Shown in pieces: positions 3,315 through 24,649 of a stretch of DNA of 32,000 nucleotides (its first letter is position 1; each line of letters opens with the position of its first letter). The stretch spans positions 150,001 to 182,000 of the forward strand of contig JAPZAR010000011.1 in NCBI GenBank assembly GCA_027460535.1, read 5' to 3'. Made by a program: the position numbers and the translations under genes. Origin of the DNA: Candidatus Methanoperedens sp. (GTDB lineage Archaea > Halobacteriota > Methanosarcinia > Methanosarcinales > Methanoperedenaceae). The notes under the pieces were generated by a model. The model was not told the DNA's origin. It searched no databases and saw only the letters and a list, made by a program, of their open reading frames with translations.

Positions 3315-3860
3315 TTATTCCAGAAACACCGCTGCTGCAAACACCGTTGTCCACAACCCGTCCTTGTCGCCTTCCGCAGATTGGCATATGTTGGTCGTCC
3401 TGAATATGTGGCCGCTGGCTTTGTATATCTGCTTCCTTTCATCCCATGCCTGGCCTATGTCAAACTCGATGCCCATTGTTGTCGCGAGCATCGTAGCTGC
3501 AAGGTCTTCTGCATGTTCCCCCGCCTTTTTGGCCACCTCACCGAAGGAATGATGCTCGGATAAATAACCATAGATACTAGTATCTTTTGGAACGGCTATC
3601 CCGACAGCTGCGGAGATCAATCGGTTGGGCTCGTTGGTCTCGTTCCTGGCAAATACACAGAAGATTATCTGGCCCGGATTCAAAAGCTTCAGGCCCTCGT
3701 CTTTCGATATTATCTTGCAGTATGGGGGCAGGATACTCGAAACGGGAACAAGGTTGCATTTCTCTATACCGGCCATTCTTAAAGCAAGCTCAAATGAGGC
3801 GAGTTTGTCTTTATGTATGCCTACCCCTTTTGTCAAAAATACTTTTTTTGGTATGTACAT
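3315..3860 (-). CDS. pdaD: Pyruvoyl-dependent arginine decarboxylase
   Basis: 181 aa with an ATG start. N-terminus [14 protein letters not shown] and the self-cleavage region [10 protein letters not shown] match the PdaD family. Confidence 0.85.
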
Positions 3861-7126: not shown

Positions 7127-7903
7127 ATGAAAATGAACCAGGATTATCATAACATAAGAGATAAGATCGTCGCTTTCATAAGCTCCAAAGTCTCGGAAGC
7201 CGGCACCAGCGGCGCAGTCATCGGACTGAGCGGAGGTATTGACTCAACCCTGACCGCGTATCTTGCGGTGGAAGCGCTTGGCCGTGAAAATGTGCTCGGG
7301 CTGCTTCTTCCTGAGAAGGGTATTACTTCTGACCTGGATATCGATGATGCAAAAGAGATCGCAGACATCCTGGGAATCGATCATAAGCTCATTGAGATCT
7401 CAGAGATCCTGGCCTCTTACTCGAAGGTCCTGCCCGATTTCGATGAAAAAAATCTAACTGCGAACGGGAATCTGAAGGCACGCATTCGCATGTGCATCCT
7501 CTATTACCATGCCAATCTGATGCACCGGATGGTCGCAGGAACAGGGAATAAGACAGAACTGCTGCTTGGATATTTCACGAAATACGGCGACGGCGGGGTT
7601 GACATAGAGCCGATAGGAGGTCTCTATAAAACCCAGGTTCGGGGGCTTGCGCGTTATATGGGGGTGCCTGCCCATATAATAGACAAAACACCCACTGCAG
7701 GGCTGTGGCCAGGGCAGACAGATGAGGGTGAGCTCGGAGTTTCCTATGAAGTCGCTGACCTGATCCTCTCAAAACTTGTGGATGAAAAACAGAATGTCGC
7801 TGATCTCAGGAAAATTTTTCCCGCTTCCCATGTGGACAGGTTAGTTGCGCTGTCTCGAATTAATCAGCATAAGCGGATGCCTCCACAGGCATTTGAAATC
7901 TGA
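7127..7903 (+). CDS. nadE: NH3-dependent NAD+ synthetase
   Basis: 258 aa. PP-loop motif GLSGGIDS. The pattern YFTKYGDGG...P..GLYKTQVR is typical of NadE. Confidence 0.9.
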   Translation: MKMNQDYHNIRDKIVAFISSKVSEAGTSGAVIGLSGGIDSTLTAYLAVEALGRENVLGLLLPEKGITSDLDIDDAKEIADILGIDHKLIEISEILASYSKVLPDFDEKNLTANGNLKARIRMCILYYHANLMHRMVAGTGNKTELLLGYFTKYGDGGVDIEPIGGLYKTQVRGLARYMGVPAHIIDKTPTAGLWPGQTDEGELGVSYEVADLILSKLVDEKQNVADLRKIFPASHVDRLVALSRINQHKRMPPQAFEI

Positions 7904-9122
7904 AAAGTGGTTTTGCAAGGTGCCTTCGGGCGCTCGGCGGAACCTCGTAGAATCCGGGTGCAAGGTCTCTATGCAATGTCTCCATGACCTGTTCTCTTTT
8001 TGTTGCCCCGCATTTCTCGCACCTGTAACCCTGCTCCCTTCCCATGGATTTCATTCTTTTGCCGCAGCAGAGCGGGTTACGCGCTTCATGCAAATTCAAC
8101 TCTTTGACCTTTATCTTCTCAAGGTTCATAGTCCCACCTCTCACGCTTCCGCAGGCGGTTATCTCATCCCCGATATGGAGCTGTGTGATAATCTTTCGGA
8201 ACCCTTTTGTAGGCTCAAAAGCGGCGCATTCCAGGCTGTGGTCGTCCGTCATTTCAAAGATTACATGGCCCCCTTTAATTGTTCTTGGAGTTTTGCTTAC
8301 CCTTCCTTCTATGATGTACGATCTCTCATCCATAACTTCGCATATTTTTGCATGGATCAGGTGCATATCCGTATTCTGGTTGGTCATGTAAATGACATGT
8401 CTTTCCACAGGCTCGCTTTTTACCAATGAAAATGCATTCTTCACTGCGTTTTCACTTTTTCCACGAATGCCAAATAGGATGGGGTCAGGCGAGTGGGGCG
8501 CGAACACGATACGCCTGTTGTCCCGGTCAACAGTGTCCCATGTATCCGGGGTGGTCGATGCTGCCCAAACAGAATCTTCATTTATGACCCTGGGCGTACC
8601 CCATCTGTTTTTCTCCCTGTAAGCGATCAGCTCGTATGTATGATCGGGAAGACCACATAGCGCAAAACCTGCAGCTGCAAGTGCTCCGATGAGACCTCTT
8701 TCATTCTTAAATCCTTTATGACTTATATCATAGCGAGCAAGTAATTCCTTCGCCTCATTGATTTCCAGCACATCCTGCACCGCACGCAGGGAAAACCGAG
8801 CAAGTTCGTCCTGCATCTTTTCTGAGGTCCCTTCGATGAAAACCACACCTGGATTCGTATTCTCATCCGAAAAAACAGCCATATTGTTAACAGTTTCAAT
8901 GACTAACTCCTTGACCCGCACAGCATCTTCATTGCTGTTCATTTCAAGAGGGAGTGCAAGGGCTGCGTTCCCCCGTGTTTTATATCTTATATTCGGGTTT
9001 AGACGCACCAACAATGGACTTTCTACCGATCCATATTTTTGGAGTCTCTCGATAAGCACGGCTGCAATATATGTCGTGCACATTCCTTCTTTTGAATCCG
9101 TATCATCGAGACCGATAATCAT
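7860..9122 (-). CDS. tiaS: tRNA(Ile2) 2-agmatinylcytidine synthetase
   Basis: 420 aa. N-terminus MIIGLDDTDSKEGMCTTY and C-terminal zinc ribbon CCGKRMKSMG...YRCEKCG match TiaS architecture. Confidence 0.85.
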   Translation of the reverse strand: MIIGLDDTDSKEGMCTTYIAAVLIERLQKYGSVESPLLVRLNPNIRYKTRGNAALALPLEMNSNEDAVRVKELVIETVNNMAVFSDENTNPGVVFIEGTSEKMQDELARFSLRAVQDVLEINEAKELLARYDISHKGFKNERGLIGALAAAGFALCGLPDHTYELIAYREKNRWGTPRVINEDSVWAASTTPDTWDTVDRDNRRIVFAPHSPDPILFGIRGKSENAVKNAFSLVKSEPVERHVIYMTNQNTDMHLIHAKICEVMDERSYIIEGRVSKTPRTIKGGHVIFEMTDDHSLECAAFEPTKGFRKIITQLHIGDEITACGSVRGGTMNLEKIKVKELNLHEARNPLCCGKRMKSMGREQGYRCEKCGATKREQVMETLHRDLAPGFYEVPPSARRHLAKPLFRFQMPVEASAYAD

Positions 9123-10252: not shown

Positions 10253-11545
10253 ATGGCAGAAAAAATTGACTGGTACGATGAGTTTGTGGATCTCAATTAC
10301 ACTCCGGCAAAAAATGAAGTGATCTGTTTATATTATTTTGAACCTGCGAAGGGTATCAGTGATGGTGAGGCCATAGGGAGAATTGCCTCCGAAAGTTCCG
10401 CCGGCACATGGACCACCCTCCATAAATTACCCGAAATGGTGGCAAGGATCAAGGCGCATGCTTTTGAATTGAGGGGGAGATATGTAAAAGTAGCATATCC
10501 ATTAGACTTATGGGAACCCGGGAATGCGCCGCAGCTGCTGAGCGGCATAGCGGGGAATATTTTCGGAATGAAAGCATTGCGAAATCTGAGATTGCTTGAT
10601 GCTTCCTTTCCAAAAGAATATATTGAACATTTCAAAGGGCCTGGATATGGCGTCGAGGGAATAAGAGCAAAACTGAAAATCAAAAAAAGACCGGTTACAG
10701 GTGCTGTGCCAAAGCCCAAAATAGGGTTCACTGCAAAAGAACATGCAGAAGTCGCTTTTGAAACATGGATGGGCGGATTTGATCTCGTAAAAGATGATGA
10801 GAACCTCACCTCACCTTCCTTTAACCGATTTGAGGATAGGGTAGAGCAGATGGCGAAATTGCGGGATAAAGTAGAAAAGCAAACCGGAGAAGAAAAGGAT
10901 GCCCTGTTGAACATCACAGGTGAAACAAAGGAGATGATCCGCAAAGCAAAATTACTTCACGACTACGGATTCAGGTTTGCCATGATCGATGTCGTTACCT
11001 GCGGCACGGCAGCGGTGCAGACACTCAGGCAGGAATGCGGCGATCTGGGTCTGGCGATTCATGCACACCGCGCTATGCATGCAGCTTTTGACCGGAATCC
11101 CAGGCATGGGATTTCCATGTATTTTTTGGCCAAGATAATGCGACTGATCGGTGTGGATGAAATTCATGTGGGTACTGCCATCGGTAAGTTGGTGGGCAGT
11201 AAAAAAGAGGTTTTGAGTATTGCGGATATGCTGCGTGCGTCCAGAACAGAGAATGTAAATGTTCTTGCACAGGACTGGGGCCCGATAAAAACCGTACTTC
11301 CCGTGTCTTCGGGAGGATTGCATCCTGGTCTAATCCCTGCGGTTATGAATCTTCTTGGAAATGATTGCACGCTTCTTGTGAGCGGCGGAATCCATGGGCA
11401 TCCCGAGGGGACACGCGCAGGTGCCAGAGCTGTGATGCAGGCAATAGATGCTGTAATGGAAGGCACAGAGTTGCAGGAATATGCCATAGCGCACAAGGAA
11501 TTGAAGCAAGCGATGGAAAAATGGGGTTATTTCAAGCCCAAGTAG
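10253..11545 (+). CDS. rbcL: Ribulose-1,5-bisphosphate carboxylase/oxygenase large subunit, archaeal form III
   Basis: 430 aa. Catalytic motifs are intact: GGFDLVKDDENL (carbamylated Lys region), IHAHRAMHAA and SGGIHGHPEG. No small subunit is adjacent. Confidence 0.9.
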   Translation: MAEKIDWYDEFVDLNYTPAKNEVICLYYFEPAKGISDGEAIGRIASESSAGTWTTLHKLPEMVARIKAHAFELRGRYVKVAYPLDLWEPGNAPQLLSGIAGNIFGMKALRNLRLLDASFPKEYIEHFKGPGYGVEGIRAKLKIKKRPVTGAVPKPKIGFTAKEHAEVAFETWMGGFDLVKDDENLTSPSFNRFEDRVEQMAKLRDKVEKQTGEEKDALLNITGETKEMIRKAKLLHDYGFRFAMIDVVTCGTAAVQTLRQECGDLGLAIHAHRAMHAAFDRNPRHGISMYFLAKIMRLIGVDEIHVGTAIGKLVGSKKEVLSIADMLRASRTENVNVLAQDWGPIKTVLPVSSGGLHPGLIPAVMNLLGNDCTLLVSGGIHGHPEGTRAGARAVMQAIDAVMEGTELQEYAIAHKELKQAMEKWGYFKPK

Positions 11546-11585: not shown

Positions 11586-11801
11586 TTATCCTTTTACAGT
11601 ATAGATTTCATTGTACACCATGCACATCACTAGAGCGGCAGGAGGGGCCAGAAGAAAAGCAGCAATGAACGCCCCCAAAATGTCTCTCCCGAAAACAAAA
11701 TATTCGTTTAATAGGTCTGATAAGGAGAATATAAACATAAAAGAGATCACATATCCTAAATAATAATGCTTTCTGGGTATCCTTTTGTATTTTTCTCCCA
11801 T
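11586..11801 (-). CDS. Small membrane protein (2 TM), unknown function
   Basis: The ATG at 11801 follows the stop of the upstream gene (11804-11806) by 2 nt. Hydrophobic segments HYYLGYVISFMFIFSL and ILGAFIAAFLLAPPAALVMCMV. The ORF-track start at 11855 would overlap the upstream gene. Confidence 0.4.
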   Translation of the reverse strand: MGEKYKRIPRKHYYLGYVISFMFIFSLSDLLNEYFVFGRDILGAFIAAFLLAPPAALVMCMVYNEIYTVKG

Positions 11802-11803
11802 AA

Positions 11804-12208
11804 CTATTTTTTTATCTTTGCTCCAAAGACCTCCCCTTCTGCTATTTTTCGGCATGGACTATCTGCAAAATTGTTGAGCTCCCGCGGGAGAGCCTTTCTG
11901 TACGCGTAGGGCTTTAAGGTCGAATACCAGCTGTAAACAAATAGTATCACGCTGATTAATGCTAACATCTCAAAAATTTCAAAATATTTTTCTTCAAAAA
12001 ATTGCTGGACCATTAATAACGTGCCGAATGAAAAAACATAAATGCTGTTTTTCTTGAAAAAGAGATCATTAACAAATGTCTTAGGAACTAATTGATCTGG
12101 GTCGATGTCCTTCCATAGAAACCATATTTGAATGAATAAGAAAATGAAAATTAAATACGATGAAAAAATTACAAGTTCTATATATTTATAAATATTATAT
12201 TCATCCAT
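11804..12208 (-). CDS. Membrane protein, unknown function (AT-rich gene)
   Basis: About 134 aa from the ATG at 12208 (the ORF-track TTG is at 12214). Several hydrophobic helices. Very AT-rich codons. Confidence 0.4.
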   Translation of the reverse strand: MDEYNIYKYIELVIFSSYLIFIFLFIQIWFLWKDIDPDQLVPKTFVNDLFFKKNSIYVFSFGTLLMVQQFFEEKYFEIFEMLALISVILFVYSWYSTLKPYAYRKALPRELNNFADSPCRKIAEGEVFGAKIKK

Positions 12209-12543
12209 TTCCAACCACTTCCTACCTTATTATTCTAATGATGATTTGGTGTAATAAAGATTTCGGAACATATGTTTGTTGCTTAATATAACGCTAAGAA
12301 AAGTTGTTGGATTGCCTTTTAATTACCAGGGAAGGACAAAACTGAAATGAGCGCTCCAAGAAAGTCTTATGTCAAATTCTTTAATAAGGTTATATCGACC
12401 TGATAAAATAAAACGTGGATAAACTCTGATGAATGCTGATAATCACACCCGCCATTATTTGCGTACATTGGCGACTAAATATTGCGAAAAATTATGAGCT
12501 TTGTTATAGACGAGATATTGGGAATAAAATATGAAAATATGGC

Positions 12544-14358
12544 TCAAACTGTTGATTCTTTTTGCACAGGAACTTTTTTCTCTGTCCCCCTTCCTTTCTT
12601 AATTTTCTCTCCTGTTTCCTCTTCTATAATATTTTCATCGATTGCTTTGGGGGCCTCTTTAACCGGCTTTTTCATTTCATTGCCTTTTCTTTTGGTTAAG
12701 ATTTTTGTTCCCTTTTCCATGTCTTCAACGGCAACTTCAGGTTCTTTTTTAACAAGCTTTCTCTTGCTCACTTTTTTCCGCGGTGTTCCATCCAACACCG
12801 TTATTTCATCTTCCAAACTTACCCCTTTTTCCTGGATTGCCGGTTTGAATTCTGAGCGTGTAACTGGTTTCTTTGAACCAGGGGTCATGGCAATTAGTGA
12901 CACTCCGGATTGCGGCTCAGGGGTTTTAGGCGCCTTTGATTCGGGGGTCTTGGCCATTAATGGCACTCCGGGTTGCGGCTCGGGGGTTTTAGGTGCCTTT
13001 GAATCAGGGGTCTTGGCAATTAATGACACTCCGGGTTGCGGCTCGGGGTTCTTAGGTGCCTTTGATTCGGAGCTCTTGGCAATTAATGACGCTCCGGATT
13101 GCGGCTTTGGGGTTTTAGGTGCCTTTGATTCGGGATTCTTGGCCATTAATGACACTCCGGATTGCGGCTTTGGGGTTTTAGGGGCCTTTGATTCGGAGCT
13201 CTTGGCAATTAATGATACTCCGGGTTGCACCTTTGGGGTTTTAGGGGCCTTTGATTCGGAGCTCTTGGCAATTAATGACACTCCGGGTTGCAGCTTTGGG
13301 GTTTTAGGTGCCTTTGATTCGGAGCTCTTGGCAATTAATGATACTCCGGATTGCGGCTTTGGGGTTTTAGGTGCCTTTGATTCAGGAGTCTTGGCCATTA
13401 ATGACACTCCGGGTTGCAGCTTTGGGGTTTTAGGTGCCTTTGATTCAGGAGTCTTGGCCATTAATGACACTCCGGGTTGCACCTTTGGGGCTTTAGGTGC
13501 CTTTGAATCAGGGGTCTTGGCAATTAATGACACTACGGGTTGCACCTTTGGGGTATTAGGTGCCTTTGATTCGGGGGTCTTGGCGATTACTGACACCTCA
13601 CGAACTACCGGTTGCGGCTCAGGGTTTTTAGGAGCCTTTGATTCGGGATTCTTGGCAACTAATGACCCTTCACGAACTCCGGGTTGCGGCTCTGCGGTTT
13701 TAACCGGGGCCTTTGGTCCAGGGTTTTTGGCAATTAATGACACTACGGGTTGTGGCTCTGCGGTTTTAGATGCCTTTGATTCGAGATTCTTGGCGATTAA
13801 TGACACTCCGGGTTGCGACTCTGGGGTTTTAGGTGCCTTTGATTCAGGGTTCTCGGCGATTAATGACACTCCGGGTTGCGGCTCTGGGGTTTTAACCAGG
13901 ACCTTTGATTCAGGGTTCTTGGTGATTAATGACCCTTCACGAACTACCGGTTGCAGCTCCGGGGTTTTAGGTGCCTTTAATTCGGGGTTCCTGGCGATTA
14001 ATGACCCTTCACGAACTCCGGGTTGCACCTCGGGGTTTTTAGGTGCCTTCAATTCGGGGTTCTCCACAATTCTTCCTTCCTCCCCTGTTTTCATCACAGA
14101 GGGTGTTGGTTTTGCGGAAGGGATTGTTTCATTTTTTTCCTGAGGAATGGCATCCTGTGTTGCCATTTGAAATCTCGCAGGCTTGAACTCATCTTTTGTT
14201 ATGTCCGCAATTCTGGAAACATCTAAAGCATGCTCTTTTTTCAATTGGTGATTGTTCCTTGATTTTCTAATTCTGATTAAGAGAAAAAGCCCAATTATGA
14301 TCAGAATTGCAATGCCTAACAAAATCAAGGGGTATCTTGAGAGTAAATCAATGGCCAT
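12544..14358 (-). CDS. N-terminally membrane-anchored Lys/Pro/Ser-rich tandem-repeat protein (predicted disordered), unknown function
   Basis: 604 aa. ATG at 14358 preceded by AGGAG. N-terminal TM helix PLILLGIAILIIIGLFLLI followed by RIRKSRNN. About 19 repeats with consensus TPESKAPKTPKxQPGVSLIAK, then a K/E-rich tail. The opposite-strand ORF lacks an SD and starts at TTG. Confidence 0.6.
   Translation of the reverse strand: MAIDLLSRYPLILLGIAILIIIGLFLLIRIRKSRNNHQLKKEHALDVSRIADITKDEFKPARFQMATQDAIPQEKNETIPSAKPTPSVMKTGEEGRIVENPELKAPKNPEVQPGVREGSLIARNPELKAPKTPELQPVVREGSLITKNPESKVLVKTPEPQPGVSLIAENPESKAPKTPESQPGVSLIAKNLESKASKTAEPQPVVSLIAKNPGPKAPVKTAEPQPGVREGSLVAKNPESKAPKNPEPQPVVREVSVIAKTPESKAPNTPKVQPVVSLIAKTPDSKAPKAPKVQPGVSLMAKTPESKAPKTPKLQPGVSLMAKTPESKAPKTPKPQSGVSLIAKSSESKAPKTPKLQPGVSLIAKSSESKAPKTPKVQPGVSLIAKSSESKAPKTPKPQSGVSLMAKNPESKAPKTPKPQSGASLIAKSSESKAPKNPEPQPGVSLIAKTPDSKAPKTPEPQPGVPLMAKTPESKAPKTPEPQSGVSLIAMTPGSKKPVTRSEFKPAIQEKGVSLEDEITVLDGTPRKKVSKRKLVKKEPEVAVEDMEKGTKILTKRKGNEMKKPVKEAPKAIDENIIEEETGEKIKKGRGTEKKVPVQKESTV
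12881..14065. repeat. Tandem direct repeat array, 63-bp unit (some 66-72-bp variants), about 19 copies, in-frame within the CDS
   Basis: Adjacent central units are near-identical: 13201-13263 versus 13264-13326 differ at 3 of 63 positions. Units near the 14-kb end are more diverged and carry 9-bp insertions (REG in the protein). Confidence 0.9.
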
Positions 14359-14425
14359 AATATCTCCTAAACCTTATTTAATATTAATATTATAATACTT
14401 AACTTTTTTGTTTGTCGTGACCTTT

Positions 14426-14854: not shown

Positions 14855-15001
14855 ATGGCATTTGAAAAATGTAATTTCTGCTCAGGAGATAAATGCACTG
14901 CCGCGGACCTGGAACCCTGCGACTTCCATGGAGATAATTTCAAGGAGTGCCTGCGCTATCGCCTTCATTTCATAAGACCCCAGGTCATGCAGCTCCGCTA
15001 G
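14855..15001 (+). CDS. Candidate small Cys-rich protein (48 aa), unknown function
   Basis: ATG at 14855 preceded by TGAGGT with a 7-nt spacer. Sequence MAFEKCNFCSGDKCTAADLEPCDFHGDNFKECLRY... has 5 Cys. Below the ORF-track cutoff. The 3' end overlaps the fprA 3' end by 17 nt. Confidence 0.3.
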   Translation: MAFEKCNFCSGDKCTAADLEPCDFHGDNFKECLRYRLHFIRPQVMQLR

Positions 15002-16190
15002 AGACCATCTGGGCCAATTTTTTTCCAAGCGCTTGGCAGTTTGCCAGATCAGTCCCATCTGGTCTGAAATTCACTTCGAGCGACTCCACGGGCTCGTATC
15101 CCGATACCTTTAATTTTTCATTTATTGCTCTCACCGCGCCCCCCGCCCACCCATAAGAACCAAAGCTTGCCCAGAGCTTGTCCTTTGGACGCAGGCCCAT
15201 AAGATACGTTAAAAATCCCCCAACTGTAGGGAACATGCCGTTATTCAACGTGGGTGAACCTATAATAATCGCTTTTGCCTCGAGCACTTCCTTCACTATT
15301 TCACTCCATTCATTCCTGCGCAGGTGAAAAAGCGATACCTCAATTCCAGAGTCTGACACTCCTTTCAGGATTTCATTTGCCATTATCTCGGTACTGTTCC
15401 ACATGGTGTCATAGATCACCAGGACCTTCTTTTTTGATGTGCCGCTTGCCCAATTTATATAAGCTTTGACTATTTTATCAGGGTTTTTCCATATCATGCC
15501 GTGGGATGGAGCGATCATTTTTATCTCGATACCCAGTTTTTGGATTTCCTCGAGTTTTTTAAGAATTATCCCACCGAAAGGCATCAGGATATTGGCGTAA
15601 TACTTAGCAGCCTCCTCAATTACCGTATCGCACTCATACCCAATAAGACTGCACACTTCCTCATCAAATCTGAACGAAGTGGCAAGATGCTGCCCAAAAC
15701 CATCATTTGACAGGAGTATCTTATCTTCCTTCAGATAGGTGAACATACTGTCTGGCCAGTGAAGCATCGGCGCGCCAATGAAGAAAAGGGTTTTTTTGCC
15801 GAGCTTGAGTTCATCACCAGTTCTGACGGTTCTGAATTTCCAGTTACCTGCGTAATGTCTCTTAAGCCCTTCTTTTCCTTTTTCCGTCGAGATTAACTCT
15901 GCATTGGCTGCCAGTTCCATGATCTCAGGCAGCGAACCCGAATGATCCATTTCTACATGATTGGAGATCACATAATCGATCTTTGACGGGTCTACTATCT
16001 CCTTTATCCTGTCGATCATCTCCCCTGCAAAACCTTTTTTTACAGTATCCACAAGAGCGATTTTTTCGTCAACGATCAGATATGCGTTGTACGTTCCTCC
16101 ACGCGGCGTGGTGTACCCATGGAAATCCCGCAGGTTCCAATCTACAACACCGACCCAGTAGACTCCATTTGTCAATTCGATTCTTGTCAT
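14985..16190 (-). CDS. fprA: Flavodiiron protein FprA (F420H2 oxidase-type; metallo-beta-lactamase plus flavodoxin domains)
   Basis: The ATG at 16190 (MTRIELTNGVYWVG) is preceded by GGGAGG; the TTG at 16208 in the ORF track is rejected. Di-iron motif ISNHVEMDHSGS. C-terminal flavodoxin-like segment KVLVIYDTMWNSTE. Confidence 0.85.
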   Translation of the reverse strand: MTRIELTNGVYWVGVVDWNLRDFHGYTTPRGGTYNAYLIVDEKIALVDTVKKGFAGEMIDRIKEIVDPSKIDYVISNHVEMDHSGSLPEIMELAANAELISTEKGKEGLKRHYAGNWKFRTVRTGDELKLGKKTLFFIGAPMLHWPDSMFTYLKEDKILLSNDGFGQHLATSFRFDEEVCSLIGYECDTVIEEAAKYYANILMPFGGIILKKLEEIQKLGIEIKMIAPSHGMIWKNPDKIVKAYINWASGTSKKKVLVIYDTMWNSTEIMANEILKGVSDSGIEVSLFHLRRNEWSEIVKEVLEAKAIIIGSPTLNNGMFPTVGGFLTYLMGLRPKDKLWASFGSYGWAGGAVRAINEKLKVSGYEPVESLEVNFRPDGTDLANCQALGKKLAQMVSSGAA

Positions 16191-16289
16191 TTTTAACCTC
16201 CCTGACAATAGTTATTTAACCCAATGGAATTAAAAACTATTGGTAATATGAACCGTTAAGAATGAAGTCATTTACCAAGTGGAGGACAT

Positions 16290-17699: not shown

Positions 17700-18086
17700 A
17701 TGAAGGAACAAGTTGAAATACGCTCATTAAAGGAAGGAAAATACATCCTGATAGATGATGAACCCTGCGTCATCAAGAGCATGACCCATTCAAAAACAGG
17801 AAAGCACGGTTCAGCGAAATCCAGGATCGATGCCATCGGCATATTCGACGGGATGAAGCGGTCGATCATAGCCCCGGTGACAGAAAAGACTTACATACCT
17901 ATCGTTGAAAGAAAGAACGGGCAGGTGTTGGCAGTTTCCGGGGAAGTTGCCCAGATAATGGATTTGGCGGATTATTCCACACTGGAACTTAAGATACCAG
18001 ATGACCTCAAAGGCAAAATAGAAGCGGGAAAAGAGATTTCCTATCTGATCTCGATGGGAAAAATGAAAATAGATATGCGAACATAG
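17700..18086 (+). CDS. eif5a: Translation initiation factor 5A (aIF5A)
   Basis: 128 aa. The hypusination loop HSKTGKHGSAK is present. Confidence 0.9.
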   Translation: MKEQVEIRSLKEGKYILIDDEPCVIKSMTHSKTGKHGSAKSRIDAIGIFDGMKRSIIAPVTEKTYIPIVERKNGQVLAVSGEVAQIMDLADYSTLELKIPDDLKGKIEAGKEISYLISMGKMKIDMRT

Positions 18087-18947
18087 ATGCAAAGAACCAG
18101 TTTTGCTGACGCAACATCGGATTATAAAAACGCACGGTACGTGATTTGTGGGGTGCCTTTTGACGGCACTTCCTGTTTCAGGCGTGGAAGTAAAATCGCG
18201 CCTCAGGAAATGAGGAATAACTCATATAATTTCGAGACATACAACTATTTTTTCGATATAGACCTGCGCGATGTCGAAATACATGATGCGGGAGATCTTG
18301 AGATAGCTTCGGATGTGGATTCAACCCTGGATATGATTTCAGTCCATGCCGGGAATTTTGTAGCTGACGGAAAGATCCCTGTAATGCTCGGGGGTGAGCA
18401 TTCCCTCACACTGCCTTTTGCCAAAGCCTGTAAAAAGAAATATCCGGAACTGGGATTCGTGGTCTTTGATGCACATATGGATATGAGGAAAGAATATGAA
18501 GGCGAAAAAAACAGCCATGCATGTATCTCACGGCACATCATTGAAAATGTGACGAAAAAATATGCAGCCGTGGGCATTAGAAGCGGAGCACGCGAGGAAT
18601 ATGAGTATGTGAGCAATAACGGGATCAAGATGTTCTCGGCAGAAGACGTGTTTTCCTCTGGCATCGAGAGAATAATCCATGAAATTCGCCATTATATCGA
18701 TGGGCCATTATATTTGTCCATCGATATGGACGCCATTGACCCTGCTTATGCCCCCGCTCTGGGAACACCTGAGCCCTATGGGCTGGCACCTCGCGATATC
18801 AGGGAAGCGATTTCATGTCTGGCGCCTGATATTGTTGGTTTTGACATTGTCGAGATTGCTCCTCCATATGATTCCGGAGGGACGGCCCTCCTGGGCACAA
18901 AGCTTGTGCGCGATTTCATAGCCGCCAGCGCAAAGGCCCGGTCATAG
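18087..18947 (+). CDS. speB: Agmatinase (arginase/ureohydrolase family)
   Basis: 286 aa. Metal-binding motifs GGEHS, DAHMD and SIDMDAIDP. The ATG directly abuts the aIF5A TAG stop. Confidence 0.85.
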   Translation: MQRTSFADATSDYKNARYVICGVPFDGTSCFRRGSKIAPQEMRNNSYNFETYNYFFDIDLRDVEIHDAGDLEIASDVDSTLDMISVHAGNFVADGKIPVMLGGEHSLTLPFAKACKKKYPELGFVVFDAHMDMRKEYEGEKNSHACISRHIIENVTKKYAAVGIRSGAREEYEYVSNNGIKMFSAEDVFSSGIERIIHEIRHYIDGPLYLSIDMDAIDPAYAPALGTPEPYGLAPRDIREAISCLAPDIVGFDIVEIAPPYDSGGTALLGTKLVRDFIAASAKARS

Positions 18948-20772: not shown

Positions 20773-21216
20773 ATGCTATCAAAGAAGTGGATCCTCGTAT
20801 CGCTCGCAGCGCTCGTGTTATTTTCAGGTTATCTGGCTCAATCCAAGAATTTCCAGTCCGTTGATGACGGGAAGATGACGCTGCAGGAATTGAAATTCTA
20901 TACGAATCTCACCCCGGCACTTGAGGCAGCAAAAGCGCAGAGCAAACCTGTATTTTTATACGCAAGGTCTGAATCATGCGGCTGGTGCAAGAAATTCGAA
21001 GAAGAAACCTTCACGAACCAGAGCGCCATCAAGAAACTAAACGAAAACTTCATATTGGTTTCAATCGATGTGTACAAGCAAAAAAATGAAACCCGAAATT
21101 TTATGATACGAGGTACACCCACTGAGATATTTCTTGACTCATCTGGCAAGGAAATAAGAAGAATACCTGGATATGCAGATACGGAAACATTTCTCAACAC
21201 AATAAATGAATTATAA
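20773..21216 (+). CDS. Membrane-anchored/secreted thioredoxin-fold protein (CGWC active site)
   Basis: 147 aa. N-terminal hydrophobic anchor WILVSLAALVLFSGYL. CxxC motif in SESCGWCKKFEEE, with a cis-Pro-type RGTPT downstream. Confidence 0.7.
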   Translation: MLSKKWILVSLAALVLFSGYLAQSKNFQSVDDGKMTLQELKFYTNLTPALEAAKAQSKPVFLYARSESCGWCKKFEEETFTNQSAIKKLNENFILVSIDVYKQKNETRNFMIRGTPTEIFLDSSGKEIRRIPGYADTETFLNTINEL

Positions 21217-21238
21217 AAATAGAGAGGCCTGAAGAAGA

Positions 21239-22543
21239 ATGAAGCCTGAAAAGAAAGAAAAAAATGTAAAAGCAAAGAGAGAAAAAATTTCGAAAAAGAA
21301 AGGTAACAGTACGTTAATTATCGGCATCGTTGCGGTAATTGTCCTTGCCGGAATAGCGTATGCTGTTTTCTCCGCTGGACCAGCAACAAAAAAAACACAA
21401 GACACCGGGGTAAAACTTCCAAGTTTTGCTTATACGAACCCGATAACATTAAAAGCTTATAAATACGCAACCGAACATCCAGAAATACTTGAACAGATAC
21501 CATGCTACTGCGGCTGTGGATCTCACGGCAGTGAAGCTTCGGATTACAGGCCGCATCGTTTTCTGAGGGACTGCTATATTAATGATAATTGGCAATATGA
21601 CGAACACGCCTCATTCTGTGACGTCTGCGTAGGAGAAGCCACTAAAGTTCAGGAATATCTCGCCGAAGGCAAGACGCTCACGGAGGCAAGGGCACTGATA
21701 GACCAGGAGTACAGCAAAATAGGGGCAATGATGACAAATACACCCCCTGTAAGTGATAATTATATACCAATCCTGAAACCGAAACTTGCCGGAACGCTGG
21801 CAACACCAGCACCGACACCGACAATCGACTTATCCGCACTCTCCCTGCCTGATAACTTCAGATCGTTAAGTGACGGTTTGAAACTTATTCCACCCGGGAT
21901 TACATGGGCATATTTTGCGAATCTGAAACAGGGAATCGGAGTCGAGCAGAAATTTATGCATGATACGAATTTTTACGGCATACCGATTATAGGAATGCTG
22001 AATTCAGAATATCCCGACGGCTCATGGGTAGAACTGCATGATGTTGGCAAAGCAAACGCAAATGTTATATCAAATGCTGGAGCAGATGCTGACAATATCG
22101 TTTCTACACGACCATTTATATTTGATTCCAAAGATAAAACAAACAGTGTGCAGGCTCTCTTTAAAAATTCTGCAACTAATGCGAATGCATATGACTCATT
22201 TAAATCCATCCTGGAAAAAGTGGACGATGAAAATGCGGGATTTGCAAAGATAAATACCACAGCACCTCCATTTGCGGATGCAAGTTATATTGGAATAATA
22301 AAATCCGAAACCGGCATACTGGGAGAAGTAAAGGGAGAAATCGCGTTTAGAATCAAGGATAACAGCTCAGTTCCGCTGGCACAATATAACGAATTGAAAA
22401 GTTCAAGCCTATCTCGCGGGTTTAAGTCTTATGAAGTGAGCCAGGAAAATAATATATTAATTATAAAAACGACCTCTAACCTGAATAATTTTATTGCTGA
22501 AGCCACTCAGCAGTACGGAATTGATATTTCAGTCTTCGGTTAA
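21239..22543 (+). CDS. Membrane-anchored PCYCGC-motif protein with an uncharacterised ~250-aa C-terminal domain
   Basis: 434 aa. Lys-rich N-terminus and TM helix LIIGIVAVIVLAGIAYAVF. PCYCGC at nt 21500-21517, followed by H..S....H and CDVC. The rest has no motif I recognise. Confidence 0.6.
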   Translation: MKPEKKEKNVKAKREKISKKKGNSTLIIGIVAVIVLAGIAYAVFSAGPATKKTQDTGVKLPSFAYTNPITLKAYKYATEHPEILEQIPCYCGCGSHGSEASDYRPHRFLRDCYINDNWQYDEHASFCDVCVGEATKVQEYLAEGKTLTEARALIDQEYSKIGAMMTNTPPVSDNYIPILKPKLAGTLATPAPTPTIDLSALSLPDNFRSLSDGLKLIPPGITWAYFANLKQGIGVEQKFMHDTNFYGIPIIGMLNSEYPDGSWVELHDVGKANANVISNAGADADNIVSTRPFIFDSKDKTNSVQALFKNSATNANAYDSFKSILEKVDDENAGFAKINTTAPPFADASYIGIIKSETGILGEVKGEIAFRIKDNSSVPLAQYNELKSSSLSRGFKSYEVSQENNILIIKTTSNLNNFIAEATQQYGIDISVFG

Positions 22544-23259
22544 TGCCCGCACCTTCCATATTCCTGGTTTTCATCGCAGGCATGGCAACAGTGATAACGC
22601 CGTGCGTTCTCCCCATCCTGCCTGCGGTGTTGTCTGGCTCCATAGGGAGCAGACTGCGCCCCTTAGCCATAGTCATGGGCATGACAATAACCTTTACTCT
22701 GATGGGCGTCCTCATTTCAGCGGTTGCGTCTTTTTCTTTTTTCGCTGATTACCTGCGATGGCTCTCGATCTTTTTTATTATCGGCATGGGCGCTGTCTTG
22801 TTTGACAATGATATAAATCAGGCATACGTGAATGCTTCAAGCTCGATTTTGAATTTCGCAAGGCAGCGTTTCTCTTATATGGGAAACATTGAATCATTCG
22901 CGCCCAGGGAAGGGCTGCTCGGAGGTCTTTTCCTGGGTGTATCCCTCGGCATCCTCTGGATACCATGCGTGGGCCCTATTCTCGGGGCAGTATTTGCTTT
23001 CGTCGCCGCAGGTTCTGCCAATCTTTTTCAAGGGAGTATTCTTCTCCTGGTATATTCTCTCGGGGTTGGAATTCCCATGCTTGGCATTGCATATTCGGGA
23101 AAAAGAGTTTCGGGCCGTGTCACCTGGTTGGCGAAAAGAGGTCATTTTTTTAAGAAGCTCTCAGGCTTGATCCTGATAATCGTAGGATTAATGATGCTCT
23201 TTGAGATCGATAGATATCTCAAGAAAATACTGTTGCCCTATTTCCCTGTTTATTTCTGA
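22543..23259 (+). CDS. ccdA: CcdA/DsbD-family transmembrane thiol-disulfide electron transporter (paralog 1)
   Basis: 238 aa, polytopic. Conserved Cys in TPCVLPILP and WIPCVGPILGA. The start ATG overlaps the upstream stop (TAATG at 22541-22545). Confidence 0.8.
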   Translation: MPAPSIFLVFIAGMATVITPCVLPILPAVLSGSIGSRLRPLAIVMGMTITFTLMGVLISAVASFSFFADYLRWLSIFFIIGMGAVLFDNDINQAYVNASSSILNFARQRFSYMGNIESFAPREGLLGGLFLGVSLGILWIPCVGPILGAVFAFVAAGSANLFQGSILLLVYSLGVGIPMLGIAYSGKRVSGRVTWLAKRGHFFKKLSGLILIIVGLMMLFEIDRYLKKILLPYFPVYF

Positions 23260-23266
23260 GGTCGCA

Positions 23267-24649
23267 ATGAATAAGAACGATGTTGAAAACGACGAAAAAT
23301 TCGATCTGCTGGATATCTATTTTTTCAGGAGCCTTGTCAAGAACAGGTTTTTCAGGCCAGTGATCAATCTGCTTTTCTTCATCTTCCTTTTAGTCATCAT
23401 ATACTTCGGGCTTTCAAGCAATCCAGACCTGCGTTTCCACGGCGGGATCCCTTTCTCTACGACAATGATATGGGACCTCTGGCATCCACTGCTCGTCTTC
23501 ACCCTCATAATTTTCGGGAGGCTCTGGTGTTTTGCATGCCCCATAGGCGCAGTCGGGGACTGGACGCAGTCGCTCTTCAGCTTCAAGAAGAAATATCCTG
23601 AAAAGTACCGGAACCTCTGGATCGCTGTCATTCTCTTCCTGTTCATTTTCGCTGCCGAGAGGCATCTTTTCATGTTTACGCGGAATCCCCCGAATACTGC
23701 ATATCTCCTTTTATTCTTCACCGGGCTGGCAGTGGTAATGGCGGTTGTGTATGAAAAGCGGTCATTTTGCAGGTACATCTGTCCAATCGGGCTTGTGCTG
23801 GGTGTTTTCTCCATGCTCTCGGCAATTGAACTTCGCTGCAAGTCAAAGAAAACCTGCGCAGACCACAACATTAAAGAGTGCGTCATCGGCAACGAAGCCG
23901 GGAAAGCATGCCCAGTCGGCGAGTTCCCGCAAACGATGGAGCGGAACAACTATTGTATAATGTGCATGGAATGCGTGAAATCTTGTTCCAAAGGGAATAT
24001 CCGACTAAGCCCAAGGCTTCCCGGTGCGGATATCGTAAAAGCAAAAAAGATACATCTGGATGAAGCATATCTTGTCCACGGGATAATCATTATGTTCCTT
24101 TTTGTCATGGGGATGGAACGCTTCCAGTTCAGGAATACGATCATCAATTTCGTGAAATCCACGCTTCCTGTTAATTCGGTGACCTTCCTTGACCTTTACT
24201 GGAGGAACATGTGGGCGATAATAATTTTTAGCCTGATAACGCTTGGTGCCGCAGGTCTCCTCTACCTTTCCACCCGGGCATCCCTTCCCGGAAAAAACAC
24301 AAAGCAAAAGTTCATGGAATTTTCCTATGCATTCATACCCCTGGCCCTTTCTGTCTACCTTGCAGAAAACACCTTCAGGCTGCTGAAAGGATTATTCTTT
24401 CTTTTGGAGAATGCGGGTAAGGTCTTTGGTGGGGTATGGCAATTCGATGTTAATTTTGACACCATTAATCAGGCGCAGATCCTCATTTTGCTGGCAGGGT
24501 TCATTTTTTCCGTATGGGCAGGGTATCTTATCAGCAAAAGGCAATCGATTGATCATAAGGAGTTCAGGCAAAGCATGACTGCAATAAGTGTTACCGCAAT
24601 TATTTATCTCTTCATAGGGGTGATAATTCTAACGCTCCCGATAGTATAA
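23267..24649 (+). CDS. Polytopic membrane polyferredoxin, NapH/CcoG(FixG)/NosR-like
   Basis: The ATG at 23267 (GAGG upstream) follows the ccdA stop by 7 nt. Membrane-embedded WCFACPIG and FCRYICPIG motifs. Ferredoxin-type CIMCMECVKSC plus CADHNIKEC...ACP. Followed by about 5 more TM helices. Confidence 0.6.
   Translation: MNKNDVENDEKFDLLDIYFFRSLVKNRFFRPVINLLFFIFLLVIIYFGLSSNPDLRFHGGIPFSTTMIWDLWHPLLVFTLIIFGRLWCFACPIGAVGDWTQSLFSFKKKYPEKYRNLWIAVILFLFIFAAERHLFMFTRNPPNTAYLLLFFTGLAVVMAVVYEKRSFCRYICPIGLVLGVFSMLSAIELRCKSKKTCADHNIKECVIGNEAGKACPVGEFPQTMERNNYCIMCMECVKSCSKGNIRLSPRLPGADIVKAKKIHLDEAYLVHGIIIMFLFVMGMERFQFRNTIINFVKSTLPVNSVTFLDLYWRNMWAIIIFSLITLGAAGLLYLSTRASLPGKNTKQKFMEFSYAFIPLALSVYLAENTFRLLKGLFFLLENAGKVFGGVWQFDVNFDTINQAQILILLAGFIFSVWAGYLISKRQSIDHKEFRQSMTAISVTAIIYLFIGVIILTLPIV

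Follow-up and report, generated by a model that had tools for sequence, protein, structure and literature searches.

Tandem repeats in Borgs have been described as perfect, recently formed and A-rich, with partial repeats at their flanks and a variable number of units, and as creating disordered regions, in many cases within proteins that are extracellular or membrane-bound (Schoelmerich et al. 2023, PMC9879509). In that study such repeats were 'virtually absent' from the Methanoperedens hosts, whose draft genomes held only 1-4 perfect tandem-repeat regions each under a filter for perfect nucleotide units of at least 50 nt, at least three units and no mismatch. Here we describe an in-frame array of 63-bp units within the gene for a 604-aa protein with a predicted membrane anchor, found on the minus strand at 12544-14358 of a 32,000-nt stretch of a Candidatus Methanoperedens assembly (contig JAPZAR010000011.1, positions 150,001 to 182,000; hereafter the window). 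The array is confirmed as real and far beyond chance, and its initial annotation as accurate in description.

Like the amino-acid tandem-repeat (aaTR) proteins of Borgs, the window array is in frame with a unit length divisible by three, has an A-enriched, T-depleted coding strand (A 33%, C 31%, G 21%, T 16%), carries a partial repeat at one flank, differs in unit number between close relatives, encodes a predicted disordered region of a membrane protein and appears to have been built from local sequence, independently in each lineage. Unlike the Borg arrays, it lies on a host chromosome and is made of imperfect units (83% matches, one perfect pair, no three identical copies). Because of this imperfection the array would be older or diversifying, and it is invisible to the filter given above. 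The link to repeats of Methanoperedens-associated genetic elements that had been drawn for this locus therefore stands as regards the in-frame units and the predicted disorder, and fails as regards the replicon and the perfection of the units. The array is best filed as a host-encoded counterpart of the known phenomenon of repeats that create disorder, in a protein family not described before.

The window is Methanoperedens host chromosome, since the surrounding genes on either strand are of the archaeal housekeeping type (form III RuBisCO, a flavodiiron protein, TiaS, eIF5A, an arginase-family protein, glutamate dehydrogenase, histone and NAD synthase) and synteny is shared with chromosomal contigs of Methanoperedens metagenome-assembled genomes (MAGs). 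A scan of species-representative genomes with the window's RuBisCO likewise returned Methanoperedens/Methanoperedenaceae MAGs as its best matches (top identity 82% aa, so that the representatives do not include this exact species). A Borg or Borg-like origin of the window was rejected on the strength of these housekeeping genes and this synteny. For the array itself we favour, with moderate confidence and largely by analogy, a reading in which a bitopic, chromosomally encoded membrane tether protein contains a disordered cytoplasmic spacer that is under weak constraint and was lengthened by slippage or recombination, the tether function being predicted.

The array, its copy number and its origin

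In the 32-kb window Tandem Repeats Finder detects a single strong array (12881-14005, period 63, 17.3 copies, 83% matches, score 1251), with overlapping rows of 72- and 138-bp periods that span 13538-14063. Together with parsing of the units, this bears out the head-to-tail 63-bp arrangement reported at the outset, and the count of about 19 repeats resolves into 18 full units and one degenerate unit. The features of the array are as follows.

12544-14358, minus strand: gene of the 604-aa repeat protein, from the open reading frame (ORF) list; ATG 14358-14356, stop 12546-12544
12886-14061, minus strand: array of 18 in-frame units (aa 100-491), parsed from the 604-aa ORF
Units 4, 5 and 8-18 (n = 13): length 21 aa
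Unit 3: length 22 aa
Units 1, 2 and 7: length 24 aa
Unit 6: length 25 aa
Unit classes: 1-7 'E-type', 21-25 aa; 8-15 'K-type' (TPK), 21 aa; 16-18 E-type, 21 aa
12823-12885, minus strand: degenerate terminal unit 19 (TPGSKKPVTRSEFKPAIQEKG; aa 492-512), a partial flanking repeat
13356-13481, minus strand: perfect duplicate of consecutive 63-bp copies (13356-13418 = 13419-13481), from the exact-repeat scan; register shifted from the parsed units
13492-13534, minus strand: left copy of a 43-bp exact identity bounding a 504-bp gap in a close relative
12988-13030, minus strand: right copy of the same 43-bp identity

Unit lengths of 63, 66, 72 and 75 bp are all divisible by three, and the ORF is intact. 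The 21-aa units follow the consensus (T/S/N)(P/S)ESKAPKTP(K/E)xQ(P/S)GVSL(I/M)AK, in which Lys replaces Glu at unit position 11 in eight consecutive units (8-15), raising their net charge to +23 over 168 aa as against +6 over 161 aa for units 1-7. The two copies at 13201-13263 and 13264-13326 differ at exactly 3 of 63 positions, as had been stated. Pairwise identity is 84-95% among units 8-15 and 75-90% among units 1-7, so that the greater divergence noted towards 14 kb is upheld. No two units are identical in the parsed register; the perfect 63-bp pair is the youngest duplication, and every other exact repeat measures at most 50 bp.

The only other record of the 604-aa gene is found on a 108-kb contig (L001; ENA ERZ27247940, protein P0001) whose flanks match those of the window at 99.8% and 99.0% identity. 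In L001 the gene itself is 100% identical save for a clean 504-bp gap that corresponds to exactly units 9-16 and leaves 10 units, eight fewer than in the window, which agrees with the copy-number variation that had been anticipated. The breakpoint can be resolved only to within the 43-bp identical stretch. The eight missing units differ from one another by 5-19% while the remainder of the gene shows zero substitutions, and for this reason the short form must derive from the long one, by deletion or by collapse in assembly; on the same comparison, a recent expansion of the short form into the long one is impossible. A further contig, L042 (ENA ERZ27247945 k141_257464, 1-330), starts inside the array. 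Its first ~150 nt match window units 7-8 with a 1-nt deletion (frameshift) and the remainder is ~89% identical, with only two further units; it may be a third allele or a chimeric contig end and is not relied on here.

The origin of the array is best viewed through a sister species (L041), which shares the gene order of the window (flavodiiron protein (FDP)-cupin-X-133aa-71aa-RuBisCO-helix-turn-helix) at ~87% nucleotide identity. The L041 ortholog (P0003) has 258 aa, among them two units of 25 aa (NPDSKVPVKTPEPQPVIPKESVIAK and NQDSKAPVKTTEPQPVIPKESVIAK) and one degenerate unit, the latter 78% identical to degenerate unit 19 of the window. Relative to the 75-bp unit of L041, window unit 6 has the same length, units 1, 2 and 7 are shorter by 3 bp, unit 3 is shorter by 9 bp and the amplified 63-bp units lack both the 9 and the 3 bp. 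This comparison points to 75 bp as the ancestral length and to the 63-bp unit as a derived deletion form that was then amplified, the array having grown from two units of 25 aa (plus one degenerate), as in L041, to 18 (plus one). The 9 extra bp (REG/REV) in units 1, 2, 6 and 7 and the 3 extra bp in units 3 and 6 are therefore best read as retained ancestral sequence, and no insertions as was first proposed for the 9-bp segments, because the L041 units are 75 bp long and this length is kept in window unit 6. The two L041 units are 89% identical to each other and the window units are 65-85% identical to them, an indication that units are closer within than between genomes and hence of either independent amplification or concerted evolution.

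The same protein region varies in other lineages. In RifSed-type Methanoperedens, another species (L003 11300-12292 locus), four alleles of 330, 323, 278 and 233 aa are found, three of which (P0014/P0018/P0017; 330/278/233 aa) are 99% identical and differ by clean in-frame gaps of 51 and 97 aa that fall in a duplicated, strongly acidic ~49-aa unit; this is independent repeat-number variation in the same part of the protein. Other lineages carry (AEEIVKEEK)n, (DIQKAVKE..)n, three ~22-aa units or three ~30-aa units at this position. Judged from these sequences, the variable stretch is a repeat hot-spot across the family, and the array appears to be still changing.

A membrane-anchored protein family of Methanoperedenaceae

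Searches with tblastn, using the non-repeat N- and C-terminal parts of the window protein against Methanoperedens loci, recovered short proteins of 123-330 aa encoded just downstream of RuBisCO in convergent orientation, and exhaustive HMMER and profile searches added more members. All come from Methanoperedens-type sources or are unnamed 'hypothetical proteins'. The exhaustive HMMER search against 1.84 billion representatives gave 11 hits, namely two close fragments/orthologs, six family members and three unrelated proteins. P0004-P0006 were rejected as relatives, their similarity being compositional (unrelated low-complexity repeat proteins), and P0025 (100 aa, a weak match to 3-dehydroquinate synthase II) was set aside as an apparent contig-edge chimera. 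Two metagenome contig scans (one with the single protein, one with profile A2) and one viral contig scan returned no locus, and an exact look-up found no record of either the window protein or P0017. Searches of Pfam, NCBIfam and PDB sequences with the protein, its orthologs and the family profile gave no meaningful match, in keeping with the original statement that no domain is recognisable. The family is undescribed, unannotated and found only in Methanoperedenaceae.

Family members begin with ~7-15 residues, one transmembrane (TM) helix, RxRK and GIADITPxEFKPERF, continue with a variable stretch, and end with LKLEDELPEVE, PRKK and a K/E-rich tail that often terminates in -(E/D)(T/S)LF. All of these modules are present in the window protein (SRIADITKDEFKPARF; VSLEDEITVLDGTPRKK), the LKLEDELPEVE and PRKK region being represented by VSLEDEITVLDGTPRKKVSKRK at aa 513-534, diverged but aligned, and the array occupies the hypervariable stretch. 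A profile built without the window protein finds it at E = 6e-11, as the sole match in the six-frame translation of the window. The protein features are these.

14275-14328, minus strand: transmembrane helix, aa 11-28 (LILLGIAILIIIGLFLLI); KD19 maximum 3.17, the sole scanning window above 1.6
14251-14274, minus strand: basic cluster RIRKSRNN, aa 29-36, the positive-inside determinant
14170-14217, minus strand: juxtamembrane motif SRIADITKDEFKPARF, aa 48-63; family consensus GIADITPxEFKPERF (alignments A1 and A2)
12790-12822, minus strand: VSLEDEITVLD, aa 513-523, counterpart of the family motif LKLEDELPEVE, followed by TPRKKVSKRK (alignment A1)
12547-12789, minus strand: K/E-rich C-terminal tail, predicted local distance difference test (pLDDT) score below 50

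By the positive-inside rule, basic residues flanking a TM helix mark its cytoplasmic side. The window protein has 6 K/R in the 15 residues after its only hydrophobic segment and 1 before it, and 31 of 31 family members have 0-1 K/R before the helix and 4-8 in the next 15 residues. On account of this bias the tail is predicted to be cytoplasmic (N-out/C-in), which supports the cytoplasmic repeat region that had been deduced from RIRKSRNN. The single N-terminal helix of the first description is confirmed. A reading of the N-terminus as an archaeal pilin or a signal peptide was rejected, there being no basic n-region.

Beyond the helix the protein is predicted to be intrinsically disordered, as had been supposed. 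AlphaFold2 places aa 1-40 of the window protein (single sequence) at pLDDT 80-95 and everything beyond aa 55 below 50, and a model of the 258-aa ortholog P0003 from an 11-sequence alignment stays below 60 beyond the helix; at confidence this low, neither model warranted a fold search. A charge-hydropathy plot assigns every tail segment to the disordered side of its boundary. The repeat region has an isoelectric point (pI) of 10.0 with 15% K and 18% P, and aa 492-604 contain 21% K and 15% E (fraction of charged residues 0.44), consistent with the K/E-rich tail first described. Across the family the net charge of the tail spans -56 to +42. Members share the anchor, the short motifs and a tendency to disorder and repeats, but not the chemistry of the variable stretch.

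The gene is read from the minus strand. This frame and its flanking motifs are kept in orthologs P0003/L041 and P0001/L001 and in ~25 more distant family members, and the ortholog comparison called for at the outset revealed no different gene at this position. The following signals and the opposing frame were considered.

14364-14368, minus strand: Shine-Dalgarno (SD)-like AGGAG, 5 nt upstream of the ATG, read from the sequence
14377-14409, minus strand: 33-nt AT-rich promoter-like stretch (aaaaaagttaagtattataatattaatattaaat), a probable archaeal B recognition element (BRE)/TATA
12482-14143, plus strand: antisense 553-aa shadow ORF, TTG start, no SD

The orthologs carry aaGGAGa at equal distance from the ATG, and the AT-rich stretch, probably an archaeal TATA/BRE promoter, is identical in L041 despite coding flanks that are only ~87% identical. 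A sigma-70 and terminator scan gave counts at or below shuffle expectation, such a scan being uninformative for an archaeon, and an Rfam search of the whole window found nothing. For the plus-strand ORF we found no SD, no promoter-like signals and no homologs; its counterpart in L041 is split into pieces of 127 and 45 aa, and K/E-rich orthologs in other genomes are likewise shadowed by antisense ORFs. The plus-strand ORF was accordingly rejected as a real gene and is a compositional shadow.

Between the window and L041, the ratio of nonsynonymous to synonymous substitution rates (dN/dS) of the repeat protein is 0.39 for the N-terminal part and 0.47 for the C-terminal part, compared with 0.06 for both FDP and RuBisCO and 0.21 for a 136-aa neighbour. 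Among the 63-bp units it is 0.62, and all differences in unit length are multiples of three. These values suggest a protein that is fast-evolving yet under some constraint.

A predicted tether and its alternatives

In the explanation we favour, units would be gained and lost by replication slippage or by unequal homologous recombination between units, processes that would have left direct traces in the perfect 63-bp duplicate and at the 43-bp junction. The product would be a membrane-tethered, disordered chain facing the cytoplasm, in which the array may serve as a flexible spacer or brush that sets the length (reach) and charge of the tail, and the few conserved short motifs may provide the specific contacts.

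The architecture may be likened to the unstructured tether of ZipA, a bacterial division protein in which a type Ib bitopic anchor is followed by a charged, P/Q-rich unstructured tether. Like ZipA, the window protein has a single-pass N-out/C-in anchor (predicted here), a basic juxtamembrane region and a long, Pro-rich, flexible cytoplasmic linker. Unlike ZipA, it has no C-terminal globular FtsZ-binding domain (ZipA_C; no Pfam match, tail pLDDT <50) and no sequence similarity, its motifs are specific to the archaeal family and its linker is built from tandem repeats. The K-S-P-rich 'entropic brush' side-arms of neurofilament and microtubule-associated proteins resemble the array in their Lys/Pro/Ser/Glu-rich units, surface tethering at one end and predicted disorder, but are eukaryotic, and the window protein has no KSP motif and no homology to them.

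Several points weigh against the tether explanation. The spacer function is argued by analogy and from the lack of charge conservation. Unit positions S4, K5, A6, Q13, L18 and A20 are invariant across 13 of 13 63-bp units, which may indicate more than a passive spacer, e.g. a repeated binding or weakly structured motif, or may reflect the mere youth of the units. Having been assembled from short reads (k141), the 10-unit allele may represent a collapse and not a genuine variant, although collapse is no obvious expectation as k = 141 exceeds 43 bp. The 18-unit allele is without record in any other assembly.

It is possible, though we think it unlikely, that the array is a functionless by-product, a tolerated slippage product in a fast-evolving, dispensable tail whose copy number drifts neutrally and with no phenotype. 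The dN/dS of 0.4-0.6, the unrelated repeats and length variants at the same region elsewhere, the unconstrained tail charge (-56 to +42) and the decay of a neighbouring cupin gene would all fit. Against this, the 1.8-kb frame is still open, the small length differences (3, 9 and 12 bp) are all in frame, six unit positions are invariant, dN/dS is below 1, and the family as a whole conserves the gene together with its SD and promoter-like region.

More doubtful is a polycationic binder, in which the Lys/Pro-rich units (net +31) would make contact with an acidic surface on the inner side of the membrane, be it DNA/RNA, ribosomes or anionic lipids, perhaps through contacts of the histone-H1-tail or S/TPKK type. 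The pI and the K and P content of the repeat region given above favour this, as do the central units, with a net charge of +3 each and TPK seven times, and the appearance that the central K-type block was the most recently amplified. However, the single S/TP[KR][KR] site (TPRK) lies outside the array, and the seven TPK lack a second basic residue; a histone H1-like S/TPKK DNA-binding tail was rejected on this basis. H1 tails, moreover, have a charge density far above that of the array. The L001 allele lacks most K-type units, and orthologous tails are neutral to strongly acidic, so that the family function cannot depend on positive charge. The nucleic-acid binder and the phase-separating scaffold initially proposed would be candidate functions; a charge-dependent role for the tail is weakened by the strongly acidic tails of the orthologs.

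An exported tail that bridges the membrane to the S-layer as an extracellular spacer, in the manner of TonB/TolA Pro-rich rods or a surface-layer stalk, is improbable. TonB and TolA share with the window protein an N-terminal anchor followed by a long, repetitive, Pro/Lys/Glu-rich extended region, and the Pro-rich (KP/EP-like) composition behind an anchor is what such a reading would expect. The predicted topology is opposite, however (N-out/C-in), the distribution of K/R (0-1 in the N-terminal and 4-8 in the C-terminal flank, 31 of 31) being the reverse of what a signal peptide or a type II anchor would show; a globular domain at the C-terminus (TonB_C/TolA_C) is lacking, and among the neighbouring genes inspected no energising partners of the ExbBD/TolQR type were recognised. 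In favour of the reading, the repeat proteins of Borgs show an enrichment of extracellular and membrane proteins; TolA repeats have been noted in Borgs (PMC9879509).

Very improbable, and drawn by analogy, is a role of the anchored protein in multivalent tethering of the adjacent form III RuBisCO or of AMP (adenosine monophosphate)-salvage enzymes, as an archaeal analogue of the pyrenoid and carboxysome linkers in which the disordered basic tail would cluster or membrane-tether the enzyme as EPYC1, CsoS2 and CcmM do for form I. If true, valency would depend on repeat number, and a separate linker would be evolving in each Methanoperedens lineage. The family gene adjoins RuBisCO III in ~14 of the 24 Methanoperedenaceae loci examined, and in L011 and L017 it follows an IF-2B-family gene by 43-75 nt. 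The window protein, whose gene neighbours that of RuBisCO, shares with EPYC1 and CsoS2 a repetitive make-up, disorder and a high pI (bioRxiv 10.1101/708164; bioRxiv 10.1101/2020.08.16.252809). Unlike them, it is membrane anchored and next to a form III enzyme, with no recognisable RuBisCO-binding motif (none of the W[RK]xx[LIVA] type, and no helix predicted in the Pro-rich units). The exhaustive HMMER search found no homology to RuBisCO linker proteins, most orthologs lack multivalent repeats and some are acidic. Known RuBisCO linkers bind through helical motifs, which the Pro-rich units cannot form. Because the repeat gene is convergent to RuBisCO, as in the equal gene order of L041, the two are not co-transcribed; the whole block is syntenic in any case, and adjacency is lost in the M. 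nitratireducens Mnv1 genome and is thus not universal in the family.

Finally, an assembly artefact or a real gene on the plus strand, to which the lack of another record of the 604-aa product, the 10 units of the only other assembly and the length of the 553-aa ORF might point, can be given hardly any credence, since every unit is marked by substitutions of its own and no exact repeat exceeds 63 bp, which is less than a read, so that mis-joining of identical copies cannot invent extra units, and since the minus frame matches a conserved family and the antisense frame, broken in L041, has neither SD nor homologs.

Neighbouring genes and significance

The surroundings of the repeat gene include the following genes.

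10253-11545, plus strand: form III RuBisCO, with two small ORFs between it and the repeat gene
11586-11855, minus strand: orphan small hydrophobic-protein ORF, 89 aa
11804-12214, minus strand: orphan small hydrophobic-protein ORF, 136 aa
14515-14805, minus strand: cupin ORF, 96 aa, TTG start, between the flavodiiron gene and the repeat gene
14985-16208, minus strand: flavodiiron protein
3315-3860, 7860-9122 and 17700-18947: polyamine/agmatine/hypusine genes
20773-24649, plus strand: thioredoxin, PCYCGC-domain, DsbD-like and Fer4-type genes on one strand (annotation from the near-identical L001)

The 136- and 89-aa ORFs overlap by 52 nt and separate the repeat gene from RuBisCO. Neither has a Pfam or NCBIfam match, and both are found only in the closest relatives, L001 and L041; in more distant genomes the family gene lies directly against RuBisCO. 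In two more distant Methanoperedenaceae genomes (L011 3562-4964 and L017 11280-12755) the family gene is placed between two AMP-salvage-type genes, downstream of the IF-2B-family (ribose-1,5-bisphosphate-isomerase-type) gene and convergent to RuBisCO III. The cupin of L041 is a 141-aa protein with a Cupin_2 match. That of the window has a diverged N-terminus and ends ~25 aa early after an apparent 1-nt frameshift, an identical remnant is present, uncalled, in L001, and the gene is probably decaying. The polyamine-related genes (a pyruvoyl-dependent arginine decarboxylase, TiaS, and eIF5A beside an arginase-family gene) are ordinary archaeal housekeeping content, and the run at 20773-24649 may be a redox or metal-handling cluster.

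By itself the locus reveals no new mechanism or function. It does establish that the host chromosome also holds at least one repeat hot-spot, though such repeats have been presented as a Borg hallmark (PMC9879509). At this hot-spot lineages appear to have built different in-frame repeats independently, and near-identical strains differ in copy number, making the locus a tractable host-side comparison of repeat birth and decay in which imperfect, older arrays can be set against the perfect arrays of Borgs. A small, clade-specific membrane protein family is now defined, and its few conserved short motifs are usable for partner tests.

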